Counted from the stretch's first letter, positions 23,397-61,400 are shown. The stretch is 64,000 nt of DNA from an uncultured Anaerobiospirillum sp. (GCA_944390115.1 CALXOW010000011.1:431-64430), one strand, 5' to 3'. Notes: generated by a model from the letters alone, not told the origin. Numbers and translations are program-made.

Positions 23397-23628
23397 GGCA
23401 GCTCCTCAAAAAAAAAATAAGAAGGCAAAGACGGTAACCCCCAGAGCGGCTGGGCAGCAGTGTGGGCATAAGCCCTACGCACCCAGCAGGTCAAGGCCGG
23501 GCTTGGTCTCACTGCTTGGGCCCCCAGGCTTCAGCACTAAGTTAATGTTGAAGCCTGGCGCGAGGGGGTAAGCCCCAAACCAGACAGGCTTATTGTGGGG
23601 CTCTTGACTGGATTGGGCTCAGCACTTG

Positions 23629-24327: not shown

Positions 24328-24380
24328 GGCAAATCCTCCAAAAGAAATGGAAATCAGTCTGGGCGCTCCTGCGTGCGCTT

Positions 24381-25037: not shown

Positions 25038-25053
25038 GGTGTTTGGCCTAGTC

Positions 25054-25758
25054 TTAAGCTGAGAATTGTTGGCGGCGCGTCAGCGTCGCTTGGATAGTGG
25101 GGCGGCAGGAGCCGCACGCCCAAAACATTCTGTCCAGGAGCCGGATGTTCGCGGGGCACTTCGGGTCGATTAGCTGTGCGCGGTCCGCAGTTGGTCCGTG
25201 CAAGAGGTCATTGTAGGCGATGTAGAAGCGCAAAAGCCAAAGGCAGGCCTTATCGTCGCGCGCCAGGCGCTGCACCAAGGCTAAGGGAAAGAGGTTGCTG
25301 TGGTTACGCTGCTCTGGTACCTCAAATTCCATGATTTGATTGTAGAGGGCGCTCACCAGCTGATAGGAGATTACGTGGTGCACGTGGCGCGCGTAGTCAG
25401 GATCCTCCTGGGGCCGCTCATGGGCTTTGGGTGCGGCCTGAAGGCGACTGGTCAGCTCAGGAAAGCTGGCTGCAAACCAGCGCTCATCGATGAGCCCTAA
25501 GGCGCACTGAAAGCGGTGCAGCTCTTGGTACAGGGCTGGGTCATAGCGCTCGAGCGCCACCATAAAGGTCGTGACTTGCTCTTGGCGCTTGGGCGGCACC
25601 TCGCGGTAAAAGCGCGCTTCCTCTTGCTGCAAAAAGGCTTGGTCGGCCTGCTGCCACTTCTGGCGGGCGCGCGGGCTATCCTGGCGGCGCGAGTAGCGGC
25701 TCGCTTGCAGGCCTCGTATGCCGCTTAAGCCACGTTGGAAGAGAGCCCAAATCAGCAA
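25054..25758 (-). CDS. Paralog 2 of the FKKIK-DP family (234 aa, TTG start)
   Basis: GAGGAAG lies 6 nt upstream of the TTG at 25758. A diverged motif reads VPPKRQEQVTTFMVALERYDPALYQELHRFQCALGLID. Confidence 0.6.
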   Translation of the reverse strand: MLIWALFQRGLSGIRGLQASRYSRRQDSPRARQKWQQADQAFLQQEEARFYREVPPKRQEQVTTFMVALERYDPALYQELHRFQCALGLIDERWFAASFPELTSRLQAAPKAHERPQEDPDYARHVHHVISYQLVSALYNQIMEFEVPEQRNHSNLFPLALVQRLARDDKACLWLLRFYIAYNDLLHGPTADRAQLIDPKCPANIRLLDRMFWACGSCRPTIQATLTRRQQFSA

Positions 25759-26032
25759 GATTAACTTCCTCTGCTAAGGTGAGAGTTCGGTTGGACGGCC
25801 CACTGGTTACGCCGTTAACGCTGGAGCACTACTATCGCCGTAGTGCTGCTAACTTGGTAGCGCTCAAGGCCCCACCTTTCTGGCGGACGGCCGCTTTCAG
25901 GCAGCCTATTGCTTGAGGCCCGCATGCTGGCCTAGCTTGTGGTGCCGTGCCATCTGCCTGCACTCAGCGCGCTGTGACGCCTAGACTTATGGCGCGCCGC
26001 TGAGCCTAAAGGCGGCCTCAGCGTTGGGACCT

Positions 26033-36313: not shown

Positions 36314-36604
36314 TTAGTCAGCATTGCGATCTAACTGTCGGAGAGCATTGATAAGCTCTCTGATATCATCAAGAGGCAGACCTTCTTCTAATAACTTTTT
36401 AGCAATATTAATCCCTGATTTAATATAGGATTTTATGTATGATTCGATATAAATATCAGCGTAGGCTTCGGCATAGGCTTCAGCATAGTCCGAATCATCG
36501 GTTTTTGCTATGGCCTCATCATAGGCTTCGTCTCTGGCGTCGTCTCGGATGGCGCGAAATTTCGCTTCGTTCTTTAGAGCTGCGATAATTGAGTCGTTTG
36601 TCAT
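36314..36604 (-). CDS. Hypothetical 96-aa protein consisting of an acidic periodic segment plus an Rpn-tail-like motif
   Basis: AEAYAEAYADIYIESYIKSYIKSGINIAKKLLEEGLPLDDIRELINAL resembles the C-terminal tail of Rpn/YhgA-like proteins (compare KKMQADGFTLDAIKKYINI at 9164..10105). Confidence 0.5.
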   Translation of the reverse strand: MTNDSIIAALKNEAKFRAIRDDARDEAYDEAIAKTDDSDYAEAYAEAYADIYIESYIKSYIKSGINIAKKLLEEGLPLDDIRELINALRQLDRNAD

Positions 36605-37080
36605 CAGCCCGCGTCCCCTCTATGAGTATAATAGAACGGTTCGTTCTACGAGTTGCTAGTTGCAATGGGCCAAGCCCGCAAATATCACGTTTTCAGCAGG
36701 GATCCTTACGACTCTGTCTGATGTAGGCTATATTAGCACCAGAAGTCTACCGATGTAAAGAAGAATTTGTTAGAGTATATTTTTTTTTTGAGCAGTGCGA
36801 TTGGCGGGCAAAATTAGGCGGCCAGCTTAAAGCGAGCTGGTTAGGTGGGGCTTCCAGCTGGAGTCGAGTCGGTAGGAGGGCCGGTCCGAATGTCACGCCA
36901 GAAGCGTTAATCTACTGGAGGAGCAAAGGAGATGAGCCAACAGGGATCATCAAATCAACGATTAATCCGTGATGGCAGTTGCAACAGCTATTAACCGCAG
37001 CGCGGCTTATAATTAACGGTAGCAGTAGCCCCCTGGATTCAAGATAATGTTAACAAATCATTAATTGCAGGTGAGTAAAT

Positions 37081-37233
37081 ATGCCTAATTTTGTTGATCT
37101 TGCTCTTTTAATTATGGTGATTTTTCTGGGCTGTGCCCTTATTTATCTTGGGTATAAGTTGTTTTCACCTGTATCGAAAGAGGAACTAGAAGAGTTTAAA
37201 CAGAAATTGTCAAACGGTGGAAAATATATTTAA
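37081..37233 (+). CDS. Small (50 aa) single-pass membrane peptide
   Basis: Own translation: MPNFVDLALLIMVIFLGCALIYLGYKLFSPVSKEELEEFKQKLSNGGKYI. AGGTGAG lies upstream of the ATG. It is below the ORF-track size cut-off and sits in AT-rich islet sequence. Confidence 0.4.
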   Translation: MPNFVDLALLIMVIFLGCALIYLGYKLFSPVSKEELEEFKQKLSNGGKYI

Positions 37234-37371
37234 TATCAGATTTTAATTTGATGCGAGGTTGATGCTTGGTAGAGCTTGCAAGCCACCTCGCAAAATATGA
37301 AACGCGCTTGGGTTTCAGATAAAGATGGGGAGCCGGGGCGCGCGGCCTAGTTTTAGGGCGGAGTGGTGGTA

Positions 37372-37686
37372 CTACTCGTCGGTACCGGGAACATTGCGGA
37401 CCGGCAGATTAGGGTCTTGGAGTAGGTCGGCGTCTTCGTCCTCGTTGACCGGACGTCCGGCAATGGTGCGCTCTTCGCTGGCCCAAGCGCCTAAGTCAAT
37501 TAACTTGCAGCGCTCCGAGCAAAAAGGACGAAACGGGTTGGAGCGATCGTAGGGAATACGCTTTTTGCAGGTCGGGCAGGTCACCATCAGGGTCGCGCTT
37601 TCTTGCTTGAGCTCCTGCTCGTCGGTGTGCGCCTCGGCCACGATCTCGTCGTAGGAACCCTCAGGCAATAGGTCTTTAAGGCTCAT
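37372..37686 (-). CDS. yacG: DNA gyrase inhibitor YacG (zinc finger), with N- and C-terminal extensions
   Basis: The core [38 protein letters not shown] closely matches the YacG Zn-finger consensus. It lies directly after zapD, so the start may be the internal M34. Confidence 0.85.
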
Positions 37687-38538: not shown

Positions 38539-39360
38539 CTAAACCAGCGCCGCAGCGCGGGCCTGAGCTAAGTACTGCATGTGTAAGTTTAGCACGGCTT
38601 GACGTTTATCAGCTACGCACGGGCTATCGGTGCTAATGACCCCATCCGCGTGCTGGAGCTTAAAGTCCCGTGGGCACTGGCGTGTGATGATGGCAAGGGC
38701 CTGCTCTTTGCTGGCGCCATCGCGATTCATAACGCGGCTGAGCTGTAACTCGGGGTCGCAATCGACCACCAAGATCGAGTCCACGACTTGATCCCAGCCG
38801 TTTTCAAACAGCAGCGGAATATCCAAGATGACATAAGGGGCAGGATGCTCTTCACTAAAGACCACGCTCGGGTCAAGCGGGGTGTTGATGAGCTCTTGCT
38901 CTTGTAAGTAGTGGGCCTTGCGGGACTGACGTTCCTCTTTGGAGAGCGTCTCCTTGGGCTGGCTTTTGGCCTTGAGGCGGCGGGCCTCTTGGGCATTGGC
39001 TTGCTGCAAGGCGGCAGTGAGGTAATAAACCTCAGGCAGGGGCTGATGGGCGGCCACTAGGTCGCAGTACTCATTGATGAGCTGGTGAATGGCCGGATGG
39101 ATGAGCGCGTTGAGTGCGGTAAGCTCAGCCGGGTCGGCAAAAACGCGCTCACGCAGGGCGCGGCGGTTTAAGGAGCCATCGGCCTCAATCACCTCAGGGC
39201 CAAAGTGCGCCGCGATTTTCTTCAGGGTCGGGCTGCCCGGCAGCACTACCACGCGGGCAATAACGTCGCTGTCAATAATCTTGACACCGTAGACTGAAAA
39301 CAGCTTGCCGATGTAGCTTTTGCCGGTGCCAATTCCCCCGGTCAGTCCCACCTTGTACAT
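38539..39360 (-). CDS. coaE: Dephospho-CoA kinase, with an internal charged insertion of about 60 aa
   Basis: VGLTGGIGTGKSY P-loop and a C-terminal half ending in YVILDIPLLFENG...VVDC. The insertion is ALQQANAQEARRLKAKSQPKETLSKEERQSRKAHYLQEQ. Confidence 0.85.
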   Translation of the reverse strand: MYKVGLTGGIGTGKSYIGKLFSVYGVKIIDSDVIARVVVLPGSPTLKKIAAHFGPEVIEADGSLNRRALRERVFADPAELTALNALIHPAIHQLINEYCDLVAAHQPLPEVYYLTAALQQANAQEARRLKAKSQPKETLSKEERQSRKAHYLQEQELINTPLDPSVVFSEEHPAPYVILDIPLLFENGWDQVVDSILVVDCDPELQLSRVMNRDGASKEQALAIITRQCPRDFKLQHADGVISTDSPCVADKRQAVLNLHMQYLAQARAAALV

Positions 39361-40440: not shown

Positions 40441-41367
40441 ATGACTGATGCCCAGAACCAGCAGTGCCAGCAGCTGCTGTTAGACTTTGCTGACTACTTG
40501 GTGTTAGAGCGCGGTTTGTCTGATAACACCCAAATGTCGTACTGCAACGATCTCAAGCTGTACCTGTACGATTTAGTTGAGCGGGGCGGCGATGCTGAGC
40601 ACTTTACGACTCAGGACGTAAAGGACTACATGGCCCAGCTCCATGCTGATGGACGCAGTGCCACTACGGTCAACCGCAAGCTGGCCGCGCTGCGCTTGTA
40701 CGTGCGCTTCCTCATTGCAGACAATCGCCGCAGCGATGACCCGCTGCTGAGCTTGGAGCAACTCAAGACCCGCCGGGCACTCCCTAAGGTCATGAGCGAA
40801 GAAACGGTCGCCGAGTTCTTACGGGCTCCGGACGTGGGCACGGTGGTGGGCCTGCGTGATCGCGCCATGTTTGAGCTGCTCTATGCCTGCGGCCTGCGTG
40901 TCTCGGAGCTGTGCCACCTCAAGTTTGAGGACATGCACCTTGACTCCAAGTACCTCATCATCAAGGGCAAGGGCGATAAGCAGCGCATGATTCCGATGAC
41001 GGAAACGGCTGTCGACTGGATCAAGAAGTACATCAACAGCGCGCGTCCCCACAACGATCCGGACGTGGTCAGCCCTTATGTCTTCTTGTCCCTAAAGAGC
41101 GACGAAAATGAGCAGCCTAAGCCCATCACCCGCATTGGCTTTTGGTTTCGGGTCAAGCATTACGCCGGCGAGATTGGCCTAGCCGAGGCCCCATCACCGC
41201 ACACCTTCCGTCACGCCTTTGCTACGCACCTGTTAAACCACGACGCGGACTTGCGCGCCCTGCAAATGCTCTTAGGCCACTCGTCCTTGAGCACCACGCA
41301 GATTTACACCCACGTGGCGCTGGCGCGTATGCACGACGTCTACGATAAGGCGCACCCGCGCGCCTAA
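40441..41367 (+). CDS. xerD: Tyrosine recombinase XerD
   Basis: Full-length colinearity with XerD: DFADYLVLERGLSDNT, LRDRAMFELLYACGLRVSEL, HTFRHAFATHLLNHDADLRALQMLLGHSSLSTTQIYTHV. Confidence 0.9.
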   Translation: MTDAQNQQCQQLLLDFADYLVLERGLSDNTQMSYCNDLKLYLYDLVERGGDAEHFTTQDVKDYMAQLHADGRSATTVNRKLAALRLYVRFLIADNRRSDDPLLSLEQLKTRRALPKVMSEETVAEFLRAPDVGTVVGLRDRAMFELLYACGLRVSELCHLKFEDMHLDSKYLIIKGKGDKQRMIPMTETAVDWIKKYINSARPHNDPDVVSPYVFLSLKSDENEQPKPITRIGFWFRVKHYAGEIGLAEAPSPHTFRHAFATHLLNHDADLRALQMLLGHSSLSTTQIYTHVALARMHDVYDKAHPRA

Positions 41368-42037
41368 GGGCCGCGCCCGTACCTCTCTCTCCCCAGCGGT
41401 GCGCCCCAGCGTAGGACAGGCGCACCGCGCGCAATGCTCTCTCATCCTACCCCGCGCTTAGTCTGAGCGCGGCCTCTTCTCAGGCATCCCGTCCTAACTT
41501 CATCTGCCCTCAGTCACCCTTAAACTCAGTCGAACCCGTGCGCACGGGGTGGGGTTGACAAAACGCAAAAAGTTTTTGCACCTCTTAAAACCTGATAAAT
41601 AAGCCAAATTATTCAGGAATCTGGAGAAAATCAGCCCTCCCGAGCGCGGATTGGCTATTAGAGCGGCTAAATGCGCTCAAACCGCATATTTATGCCGTTT
41701 GGTAACCTGATTGACCTCTATACAGAAATTTGGGTAGATAAGCAATCTAAAAGGTGGTGCCAAAAACTTTGCACAACGCGCCAAGCCGCATCAGATCAGG
41801 CTTTGCGGGCAATTTTGGGGGCAAAATCCCTGAAAACGTGATCGAAATCACAATTTCTTGCAAGAACCGCATGAAATAGGGCTTTCTGGCCCCTAATTCC
41901 TCCTTTTCCTTAATCCATGGACTCCGAGCGCTCAAAAACCGCAGGCTAAATTTGGAGTTAGGTCAAGCCTTTGACTTCGGGTCAGGGCTTGAGCCTTTCT
42001 TGAGCTGACATCCCTCTGGGGATAAGGAGCAGAGCCC

Positions 42038-44161
42038 ATGGCTCACCATGATTTTAACGAAGTGCCCCGCGCACAGTCCCACGCCGCGCGCGTGGCGGCG
42101 GCCCACTCGGCCGCTGAGGACGGACTTGACGTCCTGCTCGAGCCCGAGTCTGCCTTGGCGGCCGCAGACGGACTTGACATCTCATCTGAGCCTGAGTTCG
42201 CCTCGGCGTCCGAAGACGAGCTTGACCTAACGCCTGAGCCCGACCTGACCGCTGAAGATGAGGACGACCTTACGCCTGACTCTGACCAGGATGCTGAAGA
42301 CGAGTCCGACCGCGCGCCTGAGCCTGACCTGGACGTTGAAGACGAGTTTGAGCGCCGGTCTGAGTCCGAGCCCGAGTCTGAGCCGGTTTTTGACGAGTGG
42401 GTCGATATCAAGTTCGAGCCTGAGCACACTCCGGCCGCTGAAGACGTTGAGGACTTGCTGCCTGAGCTTGACCCAGCCGATGACGTTTGGGCGGACGTTC
42501 CCTCTGAGGCAAAGCCCGAGGCGGCCGCTGCTGACGAGGCTGAGCGCGCGCTTAAGCCTGCGTCTCACTTGGTGATCGAGTTTGTCGATGAGCTCCCGTC
42601 TCAGGCCAACTTTACTGCTGAAGATGACCTTACGCCTGAGTCTGATGAGAACGCGGTAGCTGACGAGAGTGCCACTCCGCTGGCGGTCGGTTCGATAACT
42701 GAGTCTGGTTGTAGTGAGGACGGGGTGGATAGTGCGGCGCAGGCGCGCTGGCAGGAGCTGCATGCGCAGCTTGGGGCGGCGGAAGCACGCATCATGGAGT
42801 ATGCGCGCTTAGGGAAGTCTCAGGACTTTATGGCGCGCGGGGCTCAGGATGAGCTCAATCCCTTTGAGCGCAAGCTTAAGGAGCAGCTGACCGTGTTCTT
42901 GCGCGAGCGCTATAACGCGCTCAATGGCGTCGCGGTCTATGGGACGGAGTATGGCGCGCTCAAGCTGAGGGTGCCTGAGCTTAAGGGCTTAACTGCGCTG
43001 ACCGTTTTGATGTTTGCGCTGGGCCATGACCTGGGTAAGCTCAAGACGAGCTTTGACTTGCGCTCGGTGCAAGGCCACAGCTTTACCGACTTTGCCGGGT
43101 CCTTGGACCAATTTCTGCGCTCTGAAAACTCACCGCGCGTCGAGGTCGTAGCGCAAGTTGGGCACAGCACTGAGCATGAGGAGCAAGCCTACGCTAAGGC
43201 CTTAGGTGAGTTTCAGCGTCAGGTCCCTGAGGTCTATGCCTATCTGGGGCGCCGCTTCAAGCTCATGCATATGGCCGCCGTGTGCCATGAGGCCTATATT
43301 CGCCGCATCCTCAAGGATAAGGATGGGGCTTTAGGGCCGATTAGCTGCAGCGGCGAGGAGTTTATCGGACCCTTAATCGCCAATGCTGACCGTATGGCCG
43401 TGGCTCTTTCCAAGGAGCGCTTAGGCAGTTACAGCTCGTGGTCGTTCTGCTCTGATTTGAGGTTTTACCTGACCCAGCGCGCGCTGCTGTGCCCTTTGAG
43501 CATCAACCACCGCTACAGCGACCTCTACGTGGCTGACTCGGATTTGATCTTGGTCGGTGACTCGCTGGCGCAGCGCGACTTGCAAGAGCTCTGTGGCTTA
43601 AGCCTGGTGCAGGGCCATGGGGCTTTGCATAAGACCTTGCGTGCGCTGGGGCACGTGGAATGTGCCTCTTGGCAGTGCCTGGTGGTTGGGGGCGACCTCA
43701 TCTACGTTAAGGCCAAGGCCATCGAGTTAAAGCGCGCCCACTTAGTTGAGGCCTACCAAGAAGTCGCGGGTGAAAAGGCCCAAACCATCATAGAGCGCAC
43801 GCCCGGCTGCGATGCCTTGCTCTTGACCCTCATCAATGCCTTAGCCCAGTACGCCTTGGACCCTAAGCTGGCGTGCACGCAGGTTCCGTCCTTTATCTCG
43901 AGCCTGACGCAAACCAGCAACGGCCAGCTTGATTGCTCCAAGGTCACGTTCTTAGGGGGCGATCTGACCAAGCTTCGGGCAGCGCTTAAGTCCCGCGTCA
44001 CGATCAAAAATGTTTTGACCTACCGCGAGCCCTTTACCAGCTTGCCCCAGCGCCTCGTGGTCGTGGGCGGACAGCGCCTCATCACTCAACCCGGCTTACC
44101 CCTGAGCTCATTTGAGCTGGAGTTGGTCTGGGAGCAACGTCCCAAGGCCACTGCGTCCTAA
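42038..44161 (+). CDS. Hypothetical 707-aa protein: ~230-aa acidic repeat region plus an HD-domain-like core resembling the second half of MOBH relaxases
   Basis: AAGGAG lies 8 nt upstream of the ATG. The acidic repeats follow (A)EDxLDxxPEPD. LMFALGHDLGKLKTSF and later LIANADRMAVALS resemble the LLHDxGK and ADxxS motifs of TraI (SXT/ICEclc type), judged from memory. Confidence 0.5.
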   Translation: MAHHDFNEVPRAQSHAARVAAAHSAAEDGLDVLLEPESALAAADGLDISSEPEFASASEDELDLTPEPDLTAEDEDDLTPDSDQDAEDESDRAPEPDLDVEDEFERRSESEPESEPVFDEWVDIKFEPEHTPAAEDVEDLLPELDPADDVWADVPSEAKPEAAAADEAERALKPASHLVIEFVDELPSQANFTAEDDLTPESDENAVADESATPLAVGSITESGCSEDGVDSAAQARWQELHAQLGAAEARIMEYARLGKSQDFMARGAQDELNPFERKLKEQLTVFLRERYNALNGVAVYGTEYGALKLRVPELKGLTALTVLMFALGHDLGKLKTSFDLRSVQGHSFTDFAGSLDQFLRSENSPRVEVVAQVGHSTEHEEQAYAKALGEFQRQVPEVYAYLGRRFKLMHMAAVCHEAYIRRILKDKDGALGPISCSGEEFIGPLIANADRMAVALSKERLGSYSSWSFCSDLRFYLTQRALLCPLSINHRYSDLYVADSDLILVGDSLAQRDLQELCGLSLVQGHGALHKTLRALGHVECASWQCLVVGGDLIYVKAKAIELKRAHLVEAYQEVAGEKAQTIIERTPGCDALLLTLINALAQYALDPKLACTQVPSFISSLTQTSNGQLDCSKVTFLGGDLTKLRAALKSRVTIKNVLTYREPFTSLPQRLVVVGGQRLITQPGLPLSSFELELVWEQRPKATAS

Positions 44162-44219
44162 ACAACTTTTGTTTGTCGCACTCAATCAAGATTTTTTCTT
44201 TTATCCGTAGGAGGATATC

Positions 44220-45488
44220 GTGGACACCACCACCACTAATACCGTGCAGGATAGCCTGCACGACACCAAGCACGACACTTTGGGTGTCACTTCCGCCGCC
44301 CAGACCACGGTGGCAACGCTGCAGCAAGAGCTGCCTCCGGCCAGCACTGAGGCGGAGCGGGCGGCGCAGCTGCGTAAGATCCACAAGCTCAAGTGCCAGG
44401 GGCACGCCACCCAGGGCGCTGTCGCGCGTTACTATCCGGTCCCAGCCGGGCGCGAAGCGGTCCCGCAGCCTACTGAAGCTGAGCGCGAGAAGATCTTCAG
44501 CTACACCCCGCCACGCGCCTGCCAAGTCAACCGCCTCGTCAAATGCATGCGCTCAGAGCGCGTCCAGGAGGTCACCGATAAGGAGGGTAATGTCGTGCGC
44601 ATTGCCCTCAAGCCGATGGCGCGTGACATGGCCTTAAACCTGAGCTTGCAGATTGAAGTGCTCAAGCCCGCTAAGCGCGCGGACTACGTCGACCAGCTGC
44701 TGAACTACTTTATGGCCCCTAACGGCTTAGGCCGCGAGGACCATCAGCGCAGCCGCGCCCTCTTAGAGCGCTTAGAGCCGCACCACATCCTGGACTTGGC
44801 GCGCAACTGTGAGCTGCCGGTCTGGCAGGACCTCATTGCCGAAGCCAATGAGGCGTGGGGCGATCCCAAAGAGGCGCAGCTCTCCCTCTATGAGAGGGAG
44901 GTCCCCGAGCGCCCTAAAGCCAAGGACGCCAACGACCTCATTGCGTGCTTAAGTGAGCGCAGCGCCTTGTTCTCTGAGCCGCTCCGTCTGGTGCTCAAGG
45001 ACTTAATCAGGATCTTGAATGACGGTCAACCGGCCAAGCTCCGCAACTTCATGGTGCCGGTGAAGGAGATGCTGACACTTAGCTCCAAGGGCATGATCGA
45101 TCGGCTCATTGAGCTGGGACAGAACTTCATTCGGGGCGCGGGCATTGATCCCCTGATTAACCCAAAGGCCTATGAGGCCGCTAATGGCGACCTGCATCAG
45201 CGCCTGCAAGCCCTCGTGATCGCCCCTAAGACCAAGAAGGCAGCTACCAAGAAGGTCAGCGCTAAGCGCGCCGCCGCCAAGGCTCAGAGCGCTGCAGTGC
45301 AGACTCAGGTCGCAACTCCGTCGGCCACACCGTCGGTCATTGCGCCAACTGCCTCGGCAGTTGAGTCAGCTCAGACTGCCAGCGCCGCTGAGTCGACCCA
45401 GGCCGCCAGCGCTGCCACCAGCCCTAACGCTGCGTCGAACGCGCCGACTGAGCAGGCCACCAGCGCCGCTGAGTCGACCCAGCCCTGA
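44220..45488 (+). CDS. Hypothetical 422-aa protein with Lys/Ala-rich and Ala/Ser/Thr/Gln-rich C-terminal tail
   Basis: AGGAGG lies 6 nt upstream of the GTG at 44220. The tail reads KTKKAATKKVSAKRAAAKAQSAAVQ. I recognise no family. Confidence 0.55.
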   Translation: MDTTTTNTVQDSLHDTKHDTLGVTSAAQTTVATLQQELPPASTEAERAAQLRKIHKLKCQGHATQGAVARYYPVPAGREAVPQPTEAEREKIFSYTPPRACQVNRLVKCMRSERVQEVTDKEGNVVRIALKPMARDMALNLSLQIEVLKPAKRADYVDQLLNYFMAPNGLGREDHQRSRALLERLEPHHILDLARNCELPVWQDLIAEANEAWGDPKEAQLSLYEREVPERPKAKDANDLIACLSERSALFSEPLRLVLKDLIRILNDGQPAKLRNFMVPVKEMLTLSSKGMIDRLIELGQNFIRGAGIDPLINPKAYEAANGDLHQRLQALVIAPKTKKAATKKVSAKRAAAKAQSAAVQTQVATPSATPSVIAPTASAVESAQTASAAESTQAASAATSPNAASNAPTEQATSAAESTQP

Positions 45489-45852
45489 CACTGCGCTGAG
45501 TGCATCGTCCGCTCAGGCGGCCCGTGCCTCTGCGGCGCCAGCGCCTCAGGGACCAACTGCGGTGCCAGCGTCTCAGGGACCAACTGCGACGCCAGAGCCT
45601 CAGGGGTTAGATCCGGCGCTGAGGGATGAGCTTGCGGCTGCGGAGCTTGAGCGCGCGGCAGCGCAGCTGGGCGCGCTAGCGCCAGAGGCCGCCCCTGATG
45701 CGGCGGAGCACTCTGGTAACAACAGCTCCGACGTGTCGGCTCAGCTGGAAGCTATGGCCCAGCGCGCTCAGGAGCAGCGGCAAAAGGAGTTGCGCCGCAA
45801 GCAACATAAAGCCGCGCGCAAGCAGCGTAAGGCCGCCCGCCACCACAAGTAG
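45340..45852 (+). other. Open +1-frame continuation overlapping the end of the 422-aa gene (possible frameshifted 3' part)
   Basis: The frame stays open for 170 codons. It has no credible own start after 45488 and ends in the basic tail RQKELRRKQHKAARKQRKAARHHK. Confidence 0.3.
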
Positions 45853-46217
45853 GCCTAAGGATCTACTTGCCCCCGGCGCCCATTGAGTGCGAGATCCGCG
45901 CTCAGTTGGGGCGGGCGCCTTGCTACCTGCCGCTCTTAGGAGCTGGTACCGCCGCTATGTGGTAGGTGCATGAGGCTGTGCTCTGAGCCCATCTTTCGTG
46001 GATGGGAATAGGGGCTGGGGCAAGGTGGAGCTACTTGAGCTGCCGGACGGTCGTGCTTTTTTCAGTCTCGAGCTGAAAAGAGCTTCAGCTCTGGGAACGC
46101 GTCGCTTAAGGTCTTGAGCTGCAGCGGACCTTAAGTACAGCGGGCCTTACCTGAGCTGTGAGGCGCGGTCCGGGGCGGACGGAGTCTCTTTTTGAGATGC
46201 AAACAAAGGAGTCAATC

Positions 46218-48923
46218 ATGTCGTTGCTACATGATCTGCGTTTGGTAAACGCTCAGATCCACTATTTGGTGGATCCGCGCTTACCCGGTGATGGGGGTGG
46301 TGCTGCCACTCATGTCACGGGCGCGTTAACCAGTGAGGTGGACTTAGCCCACCGCACTTTAAAGCGCGCGGTGTGCAGCGAGGTTGTGGCGCTGCTGTTC
46401 TTAGTGGGGCTATGCGGCCTGTTGCCCTTATGGCTCTGGCCTGCTCTGCTCTTAGGTGGCAGCTGGCTTATCGTGCACCGTGGGGCCCAGTACACCCTGA
46501 TGCTCGCGCCCTTTCTACCTAAGCTGACGGCCCTGATGCAGGGCATTGCCGCCCCCGAGGCTTATCGGGAGTATGGCCGAGGGTGCCTTATTGTCAGCCC
46601 GCACGGCTTTAATCTAAGCCCGCAGGCGCGCAGCGTGGAAAAGCTTAGTGAGCAGGTGCTCGCCGCGCCCGGTATTCAGGCGCTACCGCCCTTGCTTAAG
46701 CTTGAGCTTAAGTCGGCGTTAGCGGCAGGGGAGCTCGAGCGCGCTCAGGAGCTGCTTGCCTGTGCGCTCAGTATGGGGGTGCCGCTGACCGTGCCCAATG
46801 AACTGGGGCTGGCGGCCGCCTTAATTCAGGTGCAGCGCAGCGCGGCGCTCAAGGACCAAGGGCGCACCGTGGGTTTATTACCGCCCCAGTGTGGCGGCAC
46901 GCTTGTGTACCCTGGCATGCCTTACCCTAGCAGCTACGTTCCGGAGTGGGTGCCGCCTGCGGGCTTGTTATTGGGCTTTGGGGCGCCGTGGACCAGTGAG
47001 CACCAGCGCCGCATCAAGAGCTTGCTCAGTGATGGGCGCACCGTGGCCACCAATCCTAAGCTTCAGGGCTTAAGCCTCTTTCACCAGAGCTTGGGGACGC
47101 AGGGCTTTTCTCCCATTGTCTTAGCCCCAGAGGTGCAAGACTTACACTGCCTCATTACCGGTACCACGGGCTCAGGTAAGACCACCTTGCTCAATCTCTT
47201 GGTCAACCAATCGATTTTGCAGCGGCGTCCGACCATTGTGCTCGACCCTAAGGGTGACCCCACCTTAAAGCAGATGCTGGTGCATGCCTTAGAGCAAGCC
47301 GGGCGCGACCCTTTGCGCGACCTCAAGTGCTGTGACTTTCTGGCCGCACCGGGGGCGCGCTTAGAGTCACGCGCCAGCGCGGAGTTGTTTGCCACCGCGC
47401 AAGGCTTGGGCTCAGAGCTTAGCAGTGCCTCCGTGATCTGCGCGCAGTTAGAGCAAGCGATCTTGACCTGCACCAACGTCGGCTTCAATCCGCTCACCGA
47501 CCTTAATGACTCGGTGCCGCAGATGGCCCAGCTCTTGTGCTGCACCCTGCCGCACGAAGGCCCTTCGGCGACCTTTACCGCGCAAACCGAGCGCGCTATG
47601 GAGTGTGCTCTCTACTGCTCGCAGGTGTTAGATGGGACCATCACCTTGGCCACCATTAAGCGGCACTTCAACAACTGGGATAGCATGGAGTTGGCGCTGC
47701 GCACCGAGTTCAACCGCTTGGTCGAGACGCTCGATCAGCCTGAGGTCAGCACCTACTACAACAACCTCCACGGCATTAAGCTCTCTGACCTCAAGCGCGC
47801 TCCGTGCTCAGCGCAGGAGGCTATGGGCTGTGCCTTCTTAGTACGCGCCATTTTCGGCCCCGAGCTTAAAGGCACCATCACCCCAGGTGATGTCACCATC
47901 GCCTTAAAGCAGCTCGAGCAAGAGGGCCGTTTGCAGTCCGGCCCAGAACCCGCCCCTCAGTCGGCGGACGAGGAAGAAACGGACGAGGAGGAGCCGAGCG
48001 TGGGGCGTAAAGGCGCGCGCAGCTTATGGCTTAAGCACTGCCAGGAGTTCTATGCGTGGCTGCGGGCGCATCACTACGACACCAAACCGTACGATGCGTG
48101 CGTGCAGGCGCTTTTAGAGATGCTGGCGCAGGATAAGGCGCAAATCGAGAAGATGACCATGGGCGGGCGCCCGCTCTTCTCGGATTTAGGTAATCCTAAG
48201 CTGCGGGACTTGCTGTGCAATGGCACTGAGCGCAATGCCTGCATGAGTGAGGTCATCGCCCACAATCAGGTGCTCTACCTTAACTTGAGCACCTTGCGTA
48301 ACCCTAAGACCGCCCGCTTGGTGGGCACGATGGCCTTACGCACCTTGGCCCACTGTGCCGCCGCGCGCATCAGCCACTTTGGTGACCCCACCATGCCGCC
48401 GGTCGACATCTACATCGATGAGGCGAGCACCTTAAGCAGTGACACCTTGCTTGATTTACTCAACAAGACCCGCGCGGCCAAGTTCCACCTCACTTTGCTC
48501 GCGCAAAGCGTTGAGGACTTCTACCGCGAGGGCAGCCGCGCCAGCTGCGAGCACTTAATTGCCAACTGCAATGTGCGCATTGCCCTGCGCAGTATGGATC
48601 GCGCTACCTCCGAGCAGATGACGCGCCTTTTGGGCACGATTGACCAGCCCACCCGCAGCGCCAACTTAGGCGGCTTTGAAAGCAGCAGCGGTACCGACTT
48701 GAGCGCAAGTCACAGCTTAAGTAGCCAAAGCGTGCCGCTCTTTGAGCCGTCCAACCTCGCGCTTTTGCCCAACTTCGAGTTTATCGCGCTGCTGCCCAGC
48801 GGCACCCTCTACAAGGGCCTGATTCCGCGCCTGGTCCCAAGCAGCTTTACGCACCTGCACAAGGCCAGCAAGCGCTACGACCAAGCTCTGAGTGTCGTCT
48901 CAGGGGCACACCCGGCCGCTTAA
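46218..48923 (+). CDS. TraD/VirD4-type type IV coupling protein-like P-loop ATPase (901 aa)
   Basis: AAGGAG lies 7 nt upstream of the ATG at 46218. There are N-terminal TM helices (VVALLFLVGLCGLLPLWLWPALLLGG), Walker A with the PKGD box (LHCLITGTTGSGKTTLLNLLVNQSILQRRPTIVLDPKGD) and Walker B (VDIYIDEAS). Confidence 0.7.
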   Translation: MSLLHDLRLVNAQIHYLVDPRLPGDGGGAATHVTGALTSEVDLAHRTLKRAVCSEVVALLFLVGLCGLLPLWLWPALLLGGSWLIVHRGAQYTLMLAPFLPKLTALMQGIAAPEAYREYGRGCLIVSPHGFNLSPQARSVEKLSEQVLAAPGIQALPPLLKLELKSALAAGELERAQELLACALSMGVPLTVPNELGLAAALIQVQRSAALKDQGRTVGLLPPQCGGTLVYPGMPYPSSYVPEWVPPAGLLLGFGAPWTSEHQRRIKSLLSDGRTVATNPKLQGLSLFHQSLGTQGFSPIVLAPEVQDLHCLITGTTGSGKTTLLNLLVNQSILQRRPTIVLDPKGDPTLKQMLVHALEQAGRDPLRDLKCCDFLAAPGARLESRASAELFATAQGLGSELSSASVICAQLEQAILTCTNVGFNPLTDLNDSVPQMAQLLCCTLPHEGPSATFTAQTERAMECALYCSQVLDGTITLATIKRHFNNWDSMELALRTEFNRLVETLDQPEVSTYYNNLHGIKLSDLKRAPCSAQEAMGCAFLVRAIFGPELKGTITPGDVTIALKQLEQEGRLQSGPEPAPQSADEEETDEEEPSVGRKGARSLWLKHCQEFYAWLRAHHYDTKPYDACVQALLEMLAQDKAQIEKMTMGGRPLFSDLGNPKLRDLLCNGTERNACMSEVIAHNQVLYLNLSTLRNPKTARLVGTMALRTLAHCAAARISHFGDPTMPPVDIYIDEASTLSSDTLLDLLNKTRAAKFHLTLLAQSVEDFYREGSRASCEHLIANCNVRIALRSMDRATSEQMTRLLGTIDQPTRSANLGGFESSSGTDLSASHSLSSQSVPLFEPSNLALLPNFEFIALLPSGTLYKGLIPRLVPSSFTHLHKASKRYDQALSVVSGAHPAA

Positions 48924-48982
48924 AAGTCCGGCCGGTCTAACAGCCCCAGCCTTGGGGCTCAGGCCTAGAATGGAGATGTACC

Positions 48983-49549
48983 ATGCTAACCCCCAATCAC
49001 CCCAGCGCTTACGCGCGCATTAATGAGGCGCAGCGCGCGCCCTTTAGCCGCCTGAAGCTTGGCCCCTTGTTCTATCACCTGCCAGAGCTGGTGCTGCTGG
49101 CCTTAGCTTTACTGCTGACGCTCGCGCTTATGCCCGCCAGCCCTGAGGAGCAGAGCGCTTATGCCTTAAAGCCCTTAGCGGACTTAAGCGCCTACCTCTT
49201 AGGGACCGCTGGTGCCCCGACTAAAGATGAGCTCTTAGCTGAGCTCGACACTAAGGTCGCTCTCACCCAAATGGCGCTGTGCGCCGCCATTGGCATAGCC
49301 GCCGGGGGCATCCTCGCCTATGGGCGGGCCCTACGGGCCTTATGGCAGCACCGCACTATGACTATGGTCGATGAGCTATTGGGTTCTAAGCTCTTAGCGC
49401 GCACCTTCAAATGCGCCGGCATCATCACCTTTATTCTAGGGGCCTTGGCGCACAGCTATCTGGCGCTGAGCTGTCCCCTAATCCTCTTATCCGGCTTTAC
49501 CTGGGGCTACAGCGTCATCTACCGCATCACCGCCAAGTCCCGCACCTAA
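48983..49549 (+). CDS. Hypothetical integral membrane protein (188 aa)
   Basis: Four hydrophobic segments; it follows the coupling-protein gene closely. Confidence 0.5.
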   Translation: MLTPNHPSAYARINEAQRAPFSRLKLGPLFYHLPELVLLALALLLTLALMPASPEEQSAYALKPLADLSAYLLGTAGAPTKDELLAELDTKVALTQMALCAAIGIAAGGILAYGRALRALWQHRTMTMVDELLGSKLLARTFKCAGIITFILGALAHSYLALSCPLILLSGFTWGYSVIYRITAKSRT

Positions 49550-49837
49550 GCACAGCCCCAGCAGGTGCTCGCCACTTGTGCCCCCAGCTGCGAGAGCTGA
49601 GGGTGCAGGACTGTGCCTCAGCTGTGACTCCTATGGGCTTAAAGCCCCGCAAGGCCGCACTGAGCGCTGTCAGCGCAGCTGCGGGCCCTGAGGGTAGCAC
49701 TCAGCTCAAGGCAGTGCTCAAGGCTGAAGCGCTATGGGAGCTGTGCCCAGCAAGCGCCGCTGAGGCAAGCAGGGAGTAGGGCCGGATGGAAGATAGGGCG
49801 CACAAGCCCAGAGCAACATGCAACTAAGGAGTAATCG

Positions 49838-50737
49838 ATGTTATTGCAGCAATTATTCAAGCGGGTTCGGGGCCGTCCTAACCCCGGTGCTGGTGCACCC
49901 AGCACTGAGTCCGACCTGAGCCTCATCACGCCACAGGTTCCGGCAGAAGCAGCGCCGGACCCGGCGGCCACCTTAAACCAGGTGGCGGCTCATGATAGTG
50001 CGGCGGCGGCGCCGCCCCAGTCTTATCAGCGTGGCACCAGTGTCTTTTTGCCCTACCAGAGCCCGGAGGAAATCGCGGCGGCTGAGAGCATGCTTATCTA
50101 CGACATTAAGTTCATCGTGGGCCAGTGCTGTCAGGGCGCCGATGAGGCCTTTATCCGCAAGTTTAGCGCCATGGTCGATCAGCTCATTACCGGCATGATT
50201 GAGCTGTGCTCGGTCGCTCCCGCTTCAATGGGGCCGCATGATGCGGGGGTGCACGGCTTAGTGCACCACAATCTCCAGACGGCCTTTGTCGCCTGCGATC
50301 AAATCCACCACATCCTTTCTTTTATTCCAGTGAGCACCATTAGCTGTTCAGGTAAGCTCCCTGAGTCCCCGGTCAACGTCAAGCCGCCTAAGCCAAAGTT
50401 AGGCTCAGGCCTGACGCCTGAGGAGGTGGTGGTGCAAGCGCAAAGTGCCAAGCGTAAGGCTCCCGTCAAGACGGCCCCTGCGCCCAATGAAGCCACGGCT
50501 CAGGACACTGCTGCTCAGGCTCAAGCCGCTGCTAAGAGCGCCAAGGTCACGACCAGGACTGCGACCAAGAGCACCAAGGCTGCTACCAAGACTAAAGCCA
50601 AAGCTGCGCCTAAGACCACCTCGCGCCGTAAGGCGCCACCGGCTCAGCCGTCAGCGGACTTAGCCCCGGAGATTAGGGCCGCTTTAGCATTCGGGCCTAC
50701 GCTCAATCCGGCTGAGCCGGAAGGGGCTGAGGACTAA
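49838..50737 (+). CDS. Hypothetical 299-aa protein: MOBH-relaxase N-terminal-like motif plus Lys/Ala/Thr-rich basic tail
   Basis: AAGGAG lies 6 nt upstream of the ATG. MIELCSVAPASMGPHDAGVHGLVHHNLQTAFVACD resembles the LPASExHHHxxxGGLLxHxLE motif of TraI_2-type relaxases, judged from memory. The tail reads KSAKVTTRTATKSTKAATKTKAKAAPKTTSRRKAPP. Confidence 0.5.
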   Translation: MLLQQLFKRVRGRPNPGAGAPSTESDLSLITPQVPAEAAPDPAATLNQVAAHDSAAAAPPQSYQRGTSVFLPYQSPEEIAAAESMLIYDIKFIVGQCCQGADEAFIRKFSAMVDQLITGMIELCSVAPASMGPHDAGVHGLVHHNLQTAFVACDQIHHILSFIPVSTISCSGKLPESPVNVKPPKPKLGSGLTPEEVVVQAQSAKRKAPVKTAPAPNEATAQDTAAQAQAAAKSAKVTTRTATKSTKAATKTKAKAAPKTTSRRKAPPAQPSADLAPEIRAALAFGPTLNPAEPEGAED

Positions 50738-50826
50738 GCTCTGGTTAGTTTAGTTGCCAGCACTCTGGGCTTATGCCGTGCATCAAGTCCAGCGAGCAGT
50801 GCGCGCGGTTAATGGGACGGTGCTGG

Positions 50827-51624
50827 TTAGGCGGCCTTACGGGCGCACAGCGCGGTGCACAGGGCTTGGTAGGCGGCAACGACGGCGGCGATGCCTTCGC
50901 CGCGCTCAATGCAGTGAGCGACCAAATCGCCGGTGGTGACGGCTTGTGGCAGGCCTAAGCTCAGGACGGCGCTGAGCTCATCTGGGGTACCGGCGTTAAG
51001 TGGCAGCAGGCTTGGGGTCTTGAGCTCATGGCACAGGCGTAAGGCGGCGGCGGTAGCGGCGCCACCATGTACTGGCAGGACTAAGCTTGCGGCACTATCG
51101 GCGCAAATGGCTTGCAGCTCGGAGCGGCTTTGGTTATCTGGGGCTAAGAGTACTAACTCAAGGCCATGCTGGGCGCACAGAGCCTTAAAGTCAAACGGGC
51201 CGCCTTGTGGGGCCACCATGGCGTGGCTGACATCGGTAAATAAGATGGCGTTGACGCCCGCTGCGGAGGCGCGGGTCAGGAACTGCTCCAGGCCAAAGGC
51301 CAGGGCATTGTTGACGTAGAGGCTCAGCATGATCGGCATTTGTGGGAACTGAGCCTTAAAGTCGGCGATTAAGTCTAAGGCAGCTGCGATCTTTAATCCG
51401 GCGTGCAGGGCGCGGTGACTGGCGCTTTGCAGGGCGACGCTATCGGCGCAAGGGTCAGAGAAAGGCAGATGCAAGTCGAGGGCAGGAGCGTGGTTCTGGG
51501 CCAGGGCCGTCATCAGGTCACGGCAGGTCGCTAAATTAGGATCGCCTAAGGTGATGGTTGGGATGAGAGCTGGTAAACCGGTGGTGGCGCGGGCAGTTAA
51601 GGCGGCAGAGAGAGCGTGAGTCAT
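50827..51624 (-). CDS. trpA: Tryptophan synthase alpha chain (divergent)
   Basis: It lies directly downstream of trpB. LHLPFSDPCAD corresponds to the PFSDPLADGP loop, and the length of 265 aa fits. Confidence 0.75.
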   Translation of the reverse strand: MTHALSAALTARATTGLPALIPTITLGDPNLATCRDLMTALAQNHAPALDLHLPFSDPCADSVALQSASHRALHAGLKIAAALDLIADFKAQFPQMPIMLSLYVNNALAFGLEQFLTRASAAGVNAILFTDVSHAMVAPQGGPFDFKALCAQHGLELVLLAPDNQSRSELQAICADSAASLVLPVHGGAATAAALRLCHELKTPSLLPLNAGTPDELSAVLSLGLPQAVTTGDLVAHCIERGEGIAAVVAAYQALCTALCARKAA

Positions 51625-58465: not shown

Positions 58466-61400
58466 CTACTTGAGCATGCCTGAGGCGATAGCGTCGTAGG
58501 CGGTGAGCACCAGGCGCTGGGTCAGGTACTCGCCGTAGAGCTCGGTTTCCTTGCGCTTTAAGCCGGGGAAGGTCACCGATGGGTGATCAGGTCCCATGAC
58601 CGCAGTTGGATCGAGGATGTAGGCAAGCTCCTCACGCGTCAGGCCGTACATCTTGGCGATATAGGCATCAAGCTGTGCGCGAATGCTCAGGCGCTCGCGT
58701 GGTTCTTGGAACACGTACGTAGGGTACTGGGTAAGCCACACCGCGTTGATGTCATCAGCGGTGCGCGTCAGCTGCGCTACACGCGAGGCAATAAACTCTA
58801 CGTCCTCAGGGCTAAAGGCCTCCGGCGGCAGAATCGGCAGCTGCTTGAGGTAGTAGAGATTGACGTGAGCTGAAGACTGCTTAATGCGTTCAATAAAGTC
58901 CACTACTAAGCTGTTGAGTACGGCTAGCAAACAGGCTGCATGTTTATCATCGGCTTTAGGCATCAAAAGTCCTGCGGTGTTACCTACTCCCACAGCGGCA
59001 GGCAGCACGGATGCGATAACGGTACGTTCGTCAGTTGCTCTTGCAATGTCGCGCCAGGCAATGGTCCATGGCTGCTCCCAGCCCTTTTGTTGCCAGCGCT
59101 CGTTAACCAATGATTGATTAACCCAAAAACGAGGTTCAGCAAGAGCGGTTTGCTTTTGCTTTTGGTTCGTTTCCATATTCTTGGCGTCGAGCACCTTCCC
59201 TTGATGGTCGTAATCAAAAGTTGCATAGCGGTGATCAAACTGCCAGAACATCTTGCCCTCGTAGAGCGGGACTAGACCTTGCGTGCGGGCGTTTTCGGCT
59301 CCTGCCTTATCAAGCGTTACGAAATTCCCGCTGTCATTGGTCATATCAAACATGCGCATGTTGTTGATACGCCAAGGGCTTATGACTTTAGAGCCGTCAA
59401 TTGACTCGCGAACCAGTACTGGTGCAGCGCGGTAGAGCTTACGGCACAGCTCTAAGTCGTACTCAGAGCGTACTAACAGCGCGGTTTGTGTATTTGGATT
59501 GATGAGTGCGATATCTCCCGGTTCATAGCTTAGGTGAAGCTTCTCATTCTCAAGCTGCTTTGGGTCAGTCGCGTAGAAGACGCAATCTGCTACGCTTTCT
59601 TTTTGCATTGACTGTAAAGTCAGCAGTAGAAACGAGTAGCCTGAAGCTACTGCGGGGAAAATGCCTTCAGTGTTATTAAAATGATAAATCGAGCGGACAA
59701 TCCTGTTACTAAAGATAGATTGAGTAAAGAGCTTGGTTGAGTCGTCGGTAATAATACCTGCAGGCATGACCATTCCCACAGTTCCTGACTCTTTTTTCAA
59801 GTTTAGGGCAAGCTCAGCAAAGTAAGCAAATAGGTTAGTGTCACCAACTCCAGTGAGCGGGAAGCGGCCGCCATCATCACCTGAGAGGTGATTGATGGTG
59901 GAGAAGGCTGCAGCCAGATGCTGGACTCGTACGTAGTCGACAAAGATGTCGCGCTGGCGGGCATCGTCGCTGGAGGCTAAAGCCTCAATCATCTTTTGTC
60001 GAATGGCAGCGGTCTTGGCAGCAGCTACCTCAGGTAAGCGCGCGGCGAACCATTTTACGTCCTCGATCTTTGGCTTTTCCCATGGTGGATTGCCCAGCAC
60101 GCAGTCAAAGCCGCCCTTAGCCATAACTTCCATAAAGGCAAACGGCCAGTGCAGAACGTGGTTTTCAGCGCAAACTTGGTGGGCGTGCTTGAGCATGGCT
60201 TGGTGGCCTTGCTCAAAGCCCTCAGGGTCGGTTAAGAGCAGGTCTAAGTCCTTGCAGGTTGGCACTAAGGACTCGGTAGCCGTAGTCTTTTCGCTGAGAA
60301 AGGCGCTCAACAGAAGGTTGCATGCCTTAAACTCGACCGTATCCTCGATTGCCTGCTGGTTGCGGGCGTTTTGTACGGCCTTATTCTCTTCGGCTTGCAA
60401 GGTGTCGGCGGCTAGCTGGTCGAGGTTAATGTAGCCTAAGTGCTGGATAGCTGAGCCTAAGCTGGCCAGGCCATTTAAGCCTGCGTCTAACTGGTTCTCA
60501 ATGAAGACCTTGCGCTCCTTGGTGTTGCGCTTCTTTAAGGTGGCGCAGACCGTCTTATCGCTTAAGGTCAGAGCGTGCTCGCCTTTACCAATTGGGGCCT
60601 GCGGCTTGTAGGCATCAGATGGGATGCCCAGTTTGAGCACGTCGATGTCCATCACGCCCAAGAGGGCATTGCCCACCAGTAAGTGGTGGTCGATAAAGGA
60701 GAGCGGCTTGTTCTCAGCAAAGCCTTCAAGCCACAGCGCCATGCGCGCCAGCTCCACTGCCATTGGGTTGAGGTCAACGCCGTAGATGCAGTGCGAGATG
60801 ACCTCGTGTAAGGTCTTGCGGTACTCGACGTTGGCAGGGGCGCCCAAGTAGGCCTTTTGCTCCATGATGACCGCTGCAATGCGGCGCGCGGCAGCTAAGA
60901 GGAAGTGGCCGCTACCACAGGCTGGGTCGATGACCTTTAAGCTGAGGAGAGCGCTTTCGGGATCGTTCGGGTGCTCTTTGAGTTTTTGCTCAATGACTGG
61001 GTTTAAGGAGGTCTCAATCAGGCTTTGCACCAAGGAATCAGGAGTGTAGTAGGAGCCTGAGCTCTTGCGCTCATTGGCGTTGCCTTGGGCAAAGTCAAAG
61101 GTGAAGGAGTGACGGTCATCCTCGTTGACATACTTCACCACTGGCACCAGCTCGAGCAGGCCCTCATAGAGCGAGCCTAGCTCTTCGGTGTTCATGTTGG
61201 CGTAGTCGATGCGGCTGACCACGCCTTGGAGCTTGGCCCAGCGCATCAGGCGCATGGCATGTAAGAGGTCGGCGTTGGTGAGATTAACGTTCATGAGATC
61301 AGGGCATTGATCTGGGGTGAACAAACCGCCTAAGGCTGGTAGGGCCAGCAATTCCTCACCGCTAGCAAAGGCCTTAAATACCACCTTAACGCTTTCCCAC

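Follow-up and report, generated by a model that had tools for sequence, protein, structure and literature searches.

A ~9-kb island (41368-50826) in the chromosome of an uncultured Anaerobiospirillum sp. encodes a TraD-type coupling ATPase, a predicted membrane partner and, on separate proteins, the two halves of a MobH relaxase domain. It was analysed within a stretch of 64,000 nucleotides (GCA_944390115.1 CALXOW010000011.1:431-64430; hereafter the window), where it lies between xerD and trpA and comprises five genes, all on the plus strand. As far as sequence can tell, the island is securely placed at the level of homology as an Anaerobiospirillum-specific derivative of the DNA transfer and replication (Dtr) half of an SXT/IncC/PFGI-1-type conjugative element, kept functional. 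Though unusual, it can be recognised as an offshoot of known machinery. We favour the reading that it would serve as a nick-and-pump mobilisation or DNA-export module that needs a channel encoded elsewhere and is not self-transmissible, with a probability of roughly 0.45.

The place of the island, its extent and the shared orientation of its genes agree with an initial annotation of this DNA. The open reading frames (ORFs) called within it encode 707, 422, 170 (in another frame), 921/901, 188 and 299 amino acids. That annotation counted six genes; the co-orientation stands but the number falls to five, since the 422- and 170-residue ORFs are one 551-residue gene in contigs L011 and L012 (related loci carry L numbers throughout). 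The ORFs are real genes rather than chance frames, because they have homologues in other contigs and ratios of nonsynonymous to synonymous substitution (dN/dS) of 0.09-0.42. GC content is ~0.59-0.64 in the island and ~0.52-0.58 in its surroundings.

A TraD-type ATPase and its membrane partner

The 901-residue ATPase (46218-48923; alternative upstream start, GTG at 46158) has an N-terminal hydrophobic transmembrane (TM) hairpin at about residues 52-86 by hydropathy. Its Walker A motif is GTTGSGKT (residues 315-322, nucleotides 47160-47183) and its Walker B motif VDIYIDEA (residues 729-736, nucleotides 48402-48425); the all-α insert is enlarged and bears an acidic tract. The longer string around Walker A quoted in the initial annotation is indeed found, at residues 309-347. 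Two Pfam domains of type IV coupling proteins (T4CPs) score above their gathering thresholds, TrwB_AAD_bind (PF10412) at 44.0 bits against 20.5 and TraG-D_C (PF12696) at 42.0 against 22, and the top NCBIfam model is SXT_TraD (TIGR03743). A profile of the ATPase family aligns by hhalign with residues 172-620 of IncC TraD, the whole nucleotide-binding domain, at 30% identity (E 3e-30), and the alignment takes in the C-terminal motif LPNFEFIA...G.LYKG. Walker A, Walker B and ~200 other columns are invariant among members only 40-47% identical. The ATPase is accordingly close to the ICE-type (integrative and conjugative element) TraD first proposed, and is a real TraD-type coupling protein of the SXT/IncC/PFGI-1 class, in other words a DNA translocase of the hexameric type anchored in the membrane.

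The comparison of TraD with FtsK models, which the initial annotation had proposed as a check, came out on the side of the former. T4CP and TraD models are the best matches. FtsK_SpoIIIE reaches 18.7 bits against a cut-off of 24, over the P-loop only, and DUF87 reaches 31.1 bits over residues 329-367 only, which places the protein outside the FtsK/HerA families. A PDB sequence search with the ATPase profile gave a single match, the P-loop of DotL (6SZ9; E 1.4e-4).

Next to the ATPase is the gene for a 188-residue membrane protein (48983-49549), first described as having four TM segments. Its membrane nature is confirmed by hydropathy, which allows either three or four segments; we refer to it as the 4-TM protein. 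The gene lies directly 3' of the ATPase gene in 7/7 loci whose contig runs past the ATPase, and in L003 the 4-TM protein is fused in frame to the ATPase C terminus (P0007, 1113 aa). These arrangements suggest an obligate partner dedicated to the ATPase. Sequence similarity to any known coupling-protein partner was not found; an identification as TraJ/DUF4400 was rejected, as hhalign detected no similarity to either of the two genes that follow traD in IncC.

A MobH relaxase domain on two polypeptides

The 299-residue protein (49838-50737) has a core at about residues 72-160 that corresponds to the N-terminal segment of MobH, including its 'alternative 3H' motif, PASMGPHDAGVHGLVHHNL (residues 128-146, nucleotides 50219-50275). 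The relaxase-like N-terminal motif reported earlier for this protein does match the MobH N terminus (NF041494, E 3.6e-5). By hhalign the family aligns with residues 40-122 of IncC MobH (E 3.3e-5) and with residues 312-367 of a TraI_2 relaxase encoded on contig L004 (E 1.6e-5). Its invariant core is GMI.LC...PASMG.HDAG.HGLVHHNL, with S130, H134, D135, H139, H143 and H144 invariant. The 3H motif itself reads PASMGPHD: the Ser and the middle His are kept and the first position is variable. Aligned, the segments are LLPASESHHHRGAGGLFRHGLE (IncC), MLPASNVHHDAFTGGLFSHNLS (L004) and VAPASMGPHDAGVHGLVHHNLQ (299-residue protein), the last two having the HHD variant in common. A Lys/Ala/Thr-rich tract (about residues 199-266) follows the core and is itself followed by a conserved C-terminal DLAPEIRAAL (nucleotides 50657-50686).

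The HD half of MobH/TraI_2 is encoded at the other end of the island, in the 707-residue protein (42038-44161). This consists of an acidic repeat N terminus (about residues 1-235, encoded in 42-nt units), the HD half and a C-terminal domain. The HD motif HDLGK (residues 330-334, nucleotides 43025-43039) is accompanied by H380 and a final Asp, D451 (nucleotides 43388-43390). H330, D331, K334, H380 and D451 are invariant in the family, in the contexts H-D-L-x-K, EH.E for the His and ADR for the Asp; no conserved His occurs upstream of the HD motif in the family. Its profile matches the HD region of the L004 relaxase (hhalign E 4.9e-9, probability 96%; hmmsearch 57.9 bits, E 4.5e-16, in two segments) and residues 147-226 of IncC MobH (E 1.3e-4), and the C-terminal ~70 residues match the C terminus of a 640-aa protein of L004 (E 2e-6). 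The HD segments line up as LLHDVGKPLSD (IncC), LIHDLGKLITD (L004) and LGHDLGKLKTS (707-residue protein). An exhaustive HMMER search of 1.8 billion representatives added three distant members to the family, of 520-555 aa and 35-39% identity. PDB sequence searches with the HD part and with the MobH N-terminal (MobH-N) family gave no match.

Hidden Markov models of the two families match adjacent parts of a single protein, residues 92-138 and 168-223 of one ORF of L060, and this ORF is a MobH above the NCBI cut-off (205 against 200 bits). The two island proteins were also considered as paralogues of one segment, which was rejected because profile-profile comparison found no similarity between them. 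The distance from 3H to HD motif is ~60 residues in ordinary MobH and ~300 in L004, and in the window the motifs are on separate proteins. Hence the split point is one that tolerates interruption, as the ~300 residues between the motifs of the single-chain L004 relative indicate. No single island polypeptide carries TraI_2 in full above cut-off; two genes share the domain, and the 299- and 707-residue proteins are its complementary halves. The homology to HD/MOBH-like proteins claimed at the outset therefore stands, and the picture of two relaxase-like proteins gives way to that of one domain in two pieces.

In gonococcal TraI both motifs are needed for cleavage at the origin of transfer (oriT), D162 and D267 bind metal, and the alternative 3H motif is S-E-x-H-H-H (PMC6736028); the motif roles used here are taken from that work. 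By analogy, the two Anaerobiospirillum proteins would have to associate to form an active site.

The remaining gene, gene 2 (44220-45852), encodes 551 residues when intact, as it is in the conspecific contigs L011 and L012. In the window it is read as two ORFs, 44220-45488 (422 aa) and 45340-45852 (170 aa, with the Lys/Arg-rich C terminus), the frameshift arising from a 25-bp deletion, relative to L011/L012, near 45,480 in a tandem Ala/Ser/Thr-coding repeat. The deletion could reflect genuine variation of the strain, phase variation through the repeat or an error of assembly. The intact product has a globular N-terminal region of ~335 residues, an Ala/Ser/Thr/Pro repeat region, a Lys-rich tract and the Lys/Arg-rich C terminus, with no family or PDB match. 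Since it is absent from L001 and frameshifted in the window, gene 2 is a dispensable accessory gene, for a protein with histone-like basic tracts. A 249-aa 'gene 2' of L001 was rejected as a repeat-derived ORF unrelated to it.

Three island products had been described as ending in Lys/Ala-rich tails. The tracts are real; in the 299-residue protein, though, the tract is internal, before DLAPEIRAAL, and so not terminal. DLAPEIRAAL itself resembles LDPALRDELAAAEL near the gene 2 C terminus (45610-45650), and the likeness may reflect a shared short docking motif.

Distribution, selection and possible function

The ATPase family looks restricted to the genus. Among 5.8 billion protein clusters, a word-indexed search turned up no more than eight relatives, all metagenomic, followed by distant VirD4/TraG-like proteins, and a scan of GTDB with one genome per species, based on two peptide patterns, found three loci, all in Anaerobiospirillum metagenome-assembled genomes. 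IMG/VR held no ATPase relatives, plasmids only distant TraDs (~28-31% identity over at most a third of the ATPase), and JGI metagenomes nothing closer than 31% identity, the matches there being ordinary TraDs and two giant relatives. The latter, the nearest JGI relatives outside the family, are T4CP-core proteins of 1747 aa (L061 6803-14305) and 2065 aa (L020 1250-7447) on contigs of ~41-45% GC. The 1747-aa protein has a C-terminal multi-TM region; its gene has flagellin, cpoB-like and tamA-like genes as neighbours, and the gene before it encodes a protein of 597 aa that matches SIR2 marginally (PADLOC E 0.007).

The genes for the ATPase, the 4-TM protein and MobH-N are adjacent in every lineage whose contig reaches far enough. 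Across the genus this trio is found at four or more chromosomal sites, and at least five lineages keep it. In the window, L006, L011 and L012 its neighbours are xerD and trpA; L001 has trpA on one side and different genes in the place of xerD; elsewhere the trio adjoins recJ (L005, L007), an MFS transporter gene and hldE (L002) or a phosphoglucomutase gene (L003). Presence in relatives, which the initial annotation had singled out as worth checking, is indeed variable: trpA adjoins xerD in L013, L014 and L016, all from related Anaerobiospirillum, with a spacer of 73 bp in L016. Relatives with TrpA 73% and 65% identical have trpB-trpA against xerD-lipoprotein-coaE-zapD-yacG-lptD-surA-pdxA. These empty xerD/trpA sites in related species identify the island as an insertion, and together with the variation from site to site they show past mobility. 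The trpA-xerD spacer of L013 (10787-11561) is 776 bp long and filled with repeated CCTTAGAGACC-like units, perhaps REP-like (repetitive extragenic palindromic) elements.

The left boundary of the insertion lies somewhere between 41368 and ~41520 and the right boundary within 50738-50826. Alignment with L006 and L001 reveals a conserved non-coding leader of ~500 bp on the plus strand (41520-42037), whose conservation begins near 41520 even in L001, where the upstream genes differ. It contains three copies of A(A/G)CCGCAT and several short hairpins, and is a candidate promoter or regulatory region or, conceivably, oriT. An Rfam scan of 41000-51000 gave no match, the promoter and terminator scan gave signal no higher than the shuffled expectation, and no noncoding motif upstream of the ATPase or HD gene is common to distant lineages. 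A 19-nt imperfect inverted pair that brackets the island (41424-41442 and 50791-50809) was considered as a terminal repeat and rejected, since the block conserved in L001 does not extend to it, it is not preserved in L006, and it belongs to a set of 30 similar chance pairs. No direct or inverted flanking repeats were found above the level of chance pairs.

Every island gene has a dN/dS of 0.09-0.42, compared with 0.01-0.10 in the flanks (Nei-Gojobori). Between the window and L006, dS is 0.54-0.77 for island genes and 0.24-0.40 for the flanks, and amino-acid identity is 58-84% and 93-96%, respectively. L001 is a mosaic in which dS is 0.8-0.9 for the ATPase and HD part and 0.14-0.25 for the 4-TM, MobH-N, trpA and trpB genes. 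The island genes are thus under purifying selection: functional, fast-evolving and recombining, and, given dN/dS of 0.09-0.42 in all of them, not decaying. The suggestion in the initial annotation of a decayed element is contradicted by this selection, by the invariant catalytic motifs of the ATPase and by the conservation of the trio across the genus.

A decaying ICE remnant, or an ordinary part of a complete ICE nearby, is largely refuted and now very improbable. Such an origin would account for a set of Dtr-type genes only, for the frameshift in one gene of the window and for a relaxase domain broken into two genes. Against it, all genes are under purifying selection, catalytic residues are invariant over deep divergence and the trio persists in >=5 lineages. 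Moreover, the frameshifted gene is intact in conspecific contigs, housekeeping genes stand tight on both sides and 64 kb of sequence contain no gene for mating-pair formation (MPF).

The divergence of the island proteins, much faster than that of their flanks, has also to be considered in terms of defence, in which a membrane ATPase of the FtsK/HerA superfamily, paired with an HD nuclease, would intercept DNA entering by conjugation or from phages. The ATPase matches mad8 of the MADS system in PADLOC (57.9 bits, E 2.8e-16) and HerA weakly, gene content is mosaic and variable with gene 2 lost or frameshifted, McrB-like and PD-(D/E)XK genes lie just upstream of the island in L001, and the distant L061 relative follows the weakly SIR2-like protein (E 0.007) described above. 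The mad8 match, however, reflects a shared TraD/VirD4-like NTPase fold, and distant relatives score alike; the other seven mad genes are absent and no other island protein matches PADLOC. The best and most specific homologies are to a canonical relaxase and coupling-protein pair, and dN/dS stays below 0.45, with positive selection not seen at the whole-gene level. We consider a defence role improbable.

In L001 the island is preceded not by xerD but by McrB-like (AAA_5), AAA-ATPase_like/PDDEXK_9 and autotransporter genes (L001 1-5735). Accessory or defence genes may have a hotspot at this left side.

For mobilisation or DNA export, the favoured reading, the following sequence of steps can be proposed. 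The two relaxase pieces would assemble into one Mn2+/Co2+-type active site and nick, or bind to, single-stranded DNA at a specific site, perhaps within the ~500-bp leader, while the basic tracts hold the DNA. The nucleoprotein would then be passed to the TraD-like pump, which would sit together with the 4-TM protein in the inner membrane and feed DNA to a channel encoded outside the island, a type IV secretion system (T4SS) supplied in trans by another element or locus.

Several observations weigh against this proposal. The NCBIfam scores of the ATPase lie far under the curated cut-offs (SXT_TraD, 195.2 bits against 366; TOL TraD, TIGR03754, 110.2 bits against 647.6). The match of the 299-residue protein to NF041494 covers profile positions 3-82 only, at 22.8 bits against a cut-off of 200, and its 3H motif is degenerate, Glu being replaced by Met and HHH by xHD, with Asp in place of the third His. 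The 707-residue protein has no direct match in Pfam or NCBIfam family scans, and an AlphaFold2 model of the HD part from a six-sequence alignment had a mean pLDDT of 43.7, too poor for a fold search. The initial annotation had remarked on the want of mating-pair genes, a dedicated integrase and flanking repeats, and the 64-kb window bears this out: MPF genes are absent throughout it and from the related loci, no integrase or excision function was found, the sole recombinase nearby being the housekeeping XerD, and repeats are at chance level. No oriT was identified, and the supply of a channel in trans is pure conjecture. Finally, in three other lineages the HD-part gene stands by itself among core genes, with no linkage to the ATPase. 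A mobilisable element should keep its parts together, and this dispersal therefore counts against one.

The unlinked HD-part genes lie between miaA and ftsZ (P0042, on L103), between autotransporter genes and near groES/EL. HD-part genes and the trio are found together in samples SRR7683043 and BRZ_D. Three contigs of sample SRR7683043 illustrate this: L016 has the empty site, L002 has the trio by the MFS gene and L103 has the HD-part singleton. GC content is 0.522 in L002 and 0.519 in L016, and the co-occurrence is shown per sample, not per genome.

Such dispersal points to a domesticated host machine, in which the pump, the 4-TM protein and the two-piece HD enzyme would act in a chromosomal function with no conjugative channel, for example in DNA export or uptake by another envelope route or in chromosomal DNA processing at the membrane. 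The window island would then be one arrangement of genus-wide host genes. A host function would fit the HD part standing singly among core genes, the trio beside recJ, the MFS/hldE region or the phosphoglucomutase gene, purifying selection on all island genes and the confinement of the family to one genus (eight clusters of 5.8 billion, none in IMG/VR); the distant giant T4CP-like proteins of L061 and L020, with a C-terminal TM region, are also found in chromosomal contexts. Yet the module shifts position while the order trpBA-xerD-coaE-zapD-yacG-lptD-surA-pdxA is conserved, and an empty site exists; the higher island dS and the mosaic L001 argue for allele exchange rather than plain vertical descent; and only three GTDB species representatives were found with the module, in the scan by two peptide patterns. 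The scatter of parts among core genes thus inclines us to domestication, and the empty site, changes of position and mosaicism to mobility. We regard domestication as possible but doubtful.

More specifically, the TraD-like ATPase, the 4-TM protein and a two-polypeptide MobH nickase might form a chromosomal membrane DNA-processing device that works without any T4SS. The nickase would be active only when its subunits meet, the split site providing a built-in switch, and the device might export or take up DNA or intercept incoming conjugative DNA; this elaboration is tentative.

Whichever function applies, the split in the MobH domain falls precisely between the two metal-binding motifs, so that nature supplies a two-piece system in which to study how the little-understood MOBH active site is put together. 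Most work on coupling proteins and relaxases concerns complete conjugative systems, and an orphan TraD-class pump kept under selection at several chromosomal sites, with a new membrane partner and no channel nearby, is unusual. It could be a minimal mobilisation module of new design, which current MOB/CONJ scanners would miss because its scores fall under their cut-offs, or conjugation parts may have been domesticated for a host function. Members of Anaerobiospirillum inhabit the gut of humans and companion animals.

The left flank of the island is xerD (40441-41367, plus strand; NCBIfam PRK00283, 328 bits; TIGR02225, 325 bits), whose product is 96% identical in L006. This tyrosine recombinase gene is a housekeeping gene outside the island, since it stays in the lipoprotein-coaE-zapD block in relatives without the island. 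The right flank is trpA (50827-51624), which is convergent on the minus strand and was identified from homologous loci by Pfam Trp_syntA. Ordinary chromosomal genes make up the rest of the window, with Sir2, pepA, a glycosyltransferase array, rsmC, ksgA, pdxA, surA, lptD, zapD, coaE and xerD to the left, and trpA, trpB, an SDF transporter, TauE, a type IIG restriction-modification enzyme and gntP to the right. The restriction-modification enzyme (58466-62842, minus strand), 7.6 kb downstream of the island, is a single chain of 1458 aa (Eco57I/N6_Mtase/MmeI_Mtase). The array (10982-18951, minus strand) consists of five paralogous GT4 glycosyltransferase genes in tandem, of ~400-417 aa each; it is preceded by a 584-aa ORF with no Pfam match, and two of its genes have some match to the 'GT4-conflict' model as well.

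ORFs lacking a Pfam match at E<=1e-5 encode 1141 and 281 aa at 4024-8306 (minus strand) and 772, 157, 295, 218, 234 and 307 aa at 20330-26956. A PD-(D/E)XK_2 (Rpn-like) transposase-family gene is present at 9110-10105. The lptD-zapD interval (35000-37600) has a low GC content of 0.42-0.47 and a 294-aa ORF with no family match; yacG adjoins lptD in L013 and L016, and L011 has extra genes there, including a PDDEXK_2 gene. This interval looks like a second variable spot in the lineage of the window. CoaE (38539-39360, minus strand; 273 aa) matches Pfam in two stretches, a charged Lys/Glu/Gln-rich segment apparently being inserted in the middle of the kinase.

Comparison with known systems

The closest counterparts of the island ATPase are the TraD proteins of SXT/R391 ICEs, IncA/C plasmids and PFGI-1/ICEclc (the 't4cp2' class). 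They share with it the TM hairpin, the P-loop, TraG-D_C and the C-terminal motif LPNxE(F/Y)IA...G..(Y/V)KG, and both have a MobH-type partner gene. The island protein differs in an N-terminal region that is ~130 aa longer, in ~130 extra residues between Walker A and B and in its constant pairing, with one fusion, to the novel 4-TM protein. Whereas IncC traD adjoins traL/E/K/B, the island ATPase gene is next to no MPF gene.

MOBH relaxases (TraI_2, PF07514; NF041494; TraI of the gonococcal genetic island, SXT and IncC) likewise contain the PAS..H..GGL..H.L segment, the HD segment HDxGK ... H..HE ... D and disordered charged regions, and are encoded next to traD. In the island the domain is on two polypeptides encoded either side of traD, which are unlinked in other lineages; both pieces score under the family cut-offs, and their role as a nickase is a prediction from sequence.

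The nearest outgroup found is the module of L004 (Logan SRR9851004, 1-14147), which encodes a 1351-aa T4CP, proteins of 644 and 285 aa, the 1131-aa TraI_2 relaxase and the 640-aa protein. Its T4CP is 30% identical to the island ATPase, and the 3H motif of its relaxase is likewise of the HHD/SHNL variant; the relaxase is single-chain, however, the gene order is different and neither the 4-TM protein nor gene 2 has a detected homologue there. The L004 module may be an evolutionary intermediate.

In DotL-DotM, a coupling ATPase has a small polytopic membrane partner encoded alongside. The 4-TM protein would be analogous to DotM, while DotL and the island ATPase themselves have a weak match in the P-loop only.

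Our literature search returned nothing pertinent on orphan coupling proteins or Anaerobiospirillum ICEs, and no paper describing Anaerobiospirillum mobile elements. Integrative mobilisable elements carry their own relaxase and coupling protein and borrow the T4SS of a helper. Unlike these, the island has no integrase or excisionase, att repeats or recognisable oriT, and its components are dispersed elsewhere. Like them, it combines relaxase-type and T4CP genes without MPF genes and is inserted in the chromosome at a site that is empty in relatives.

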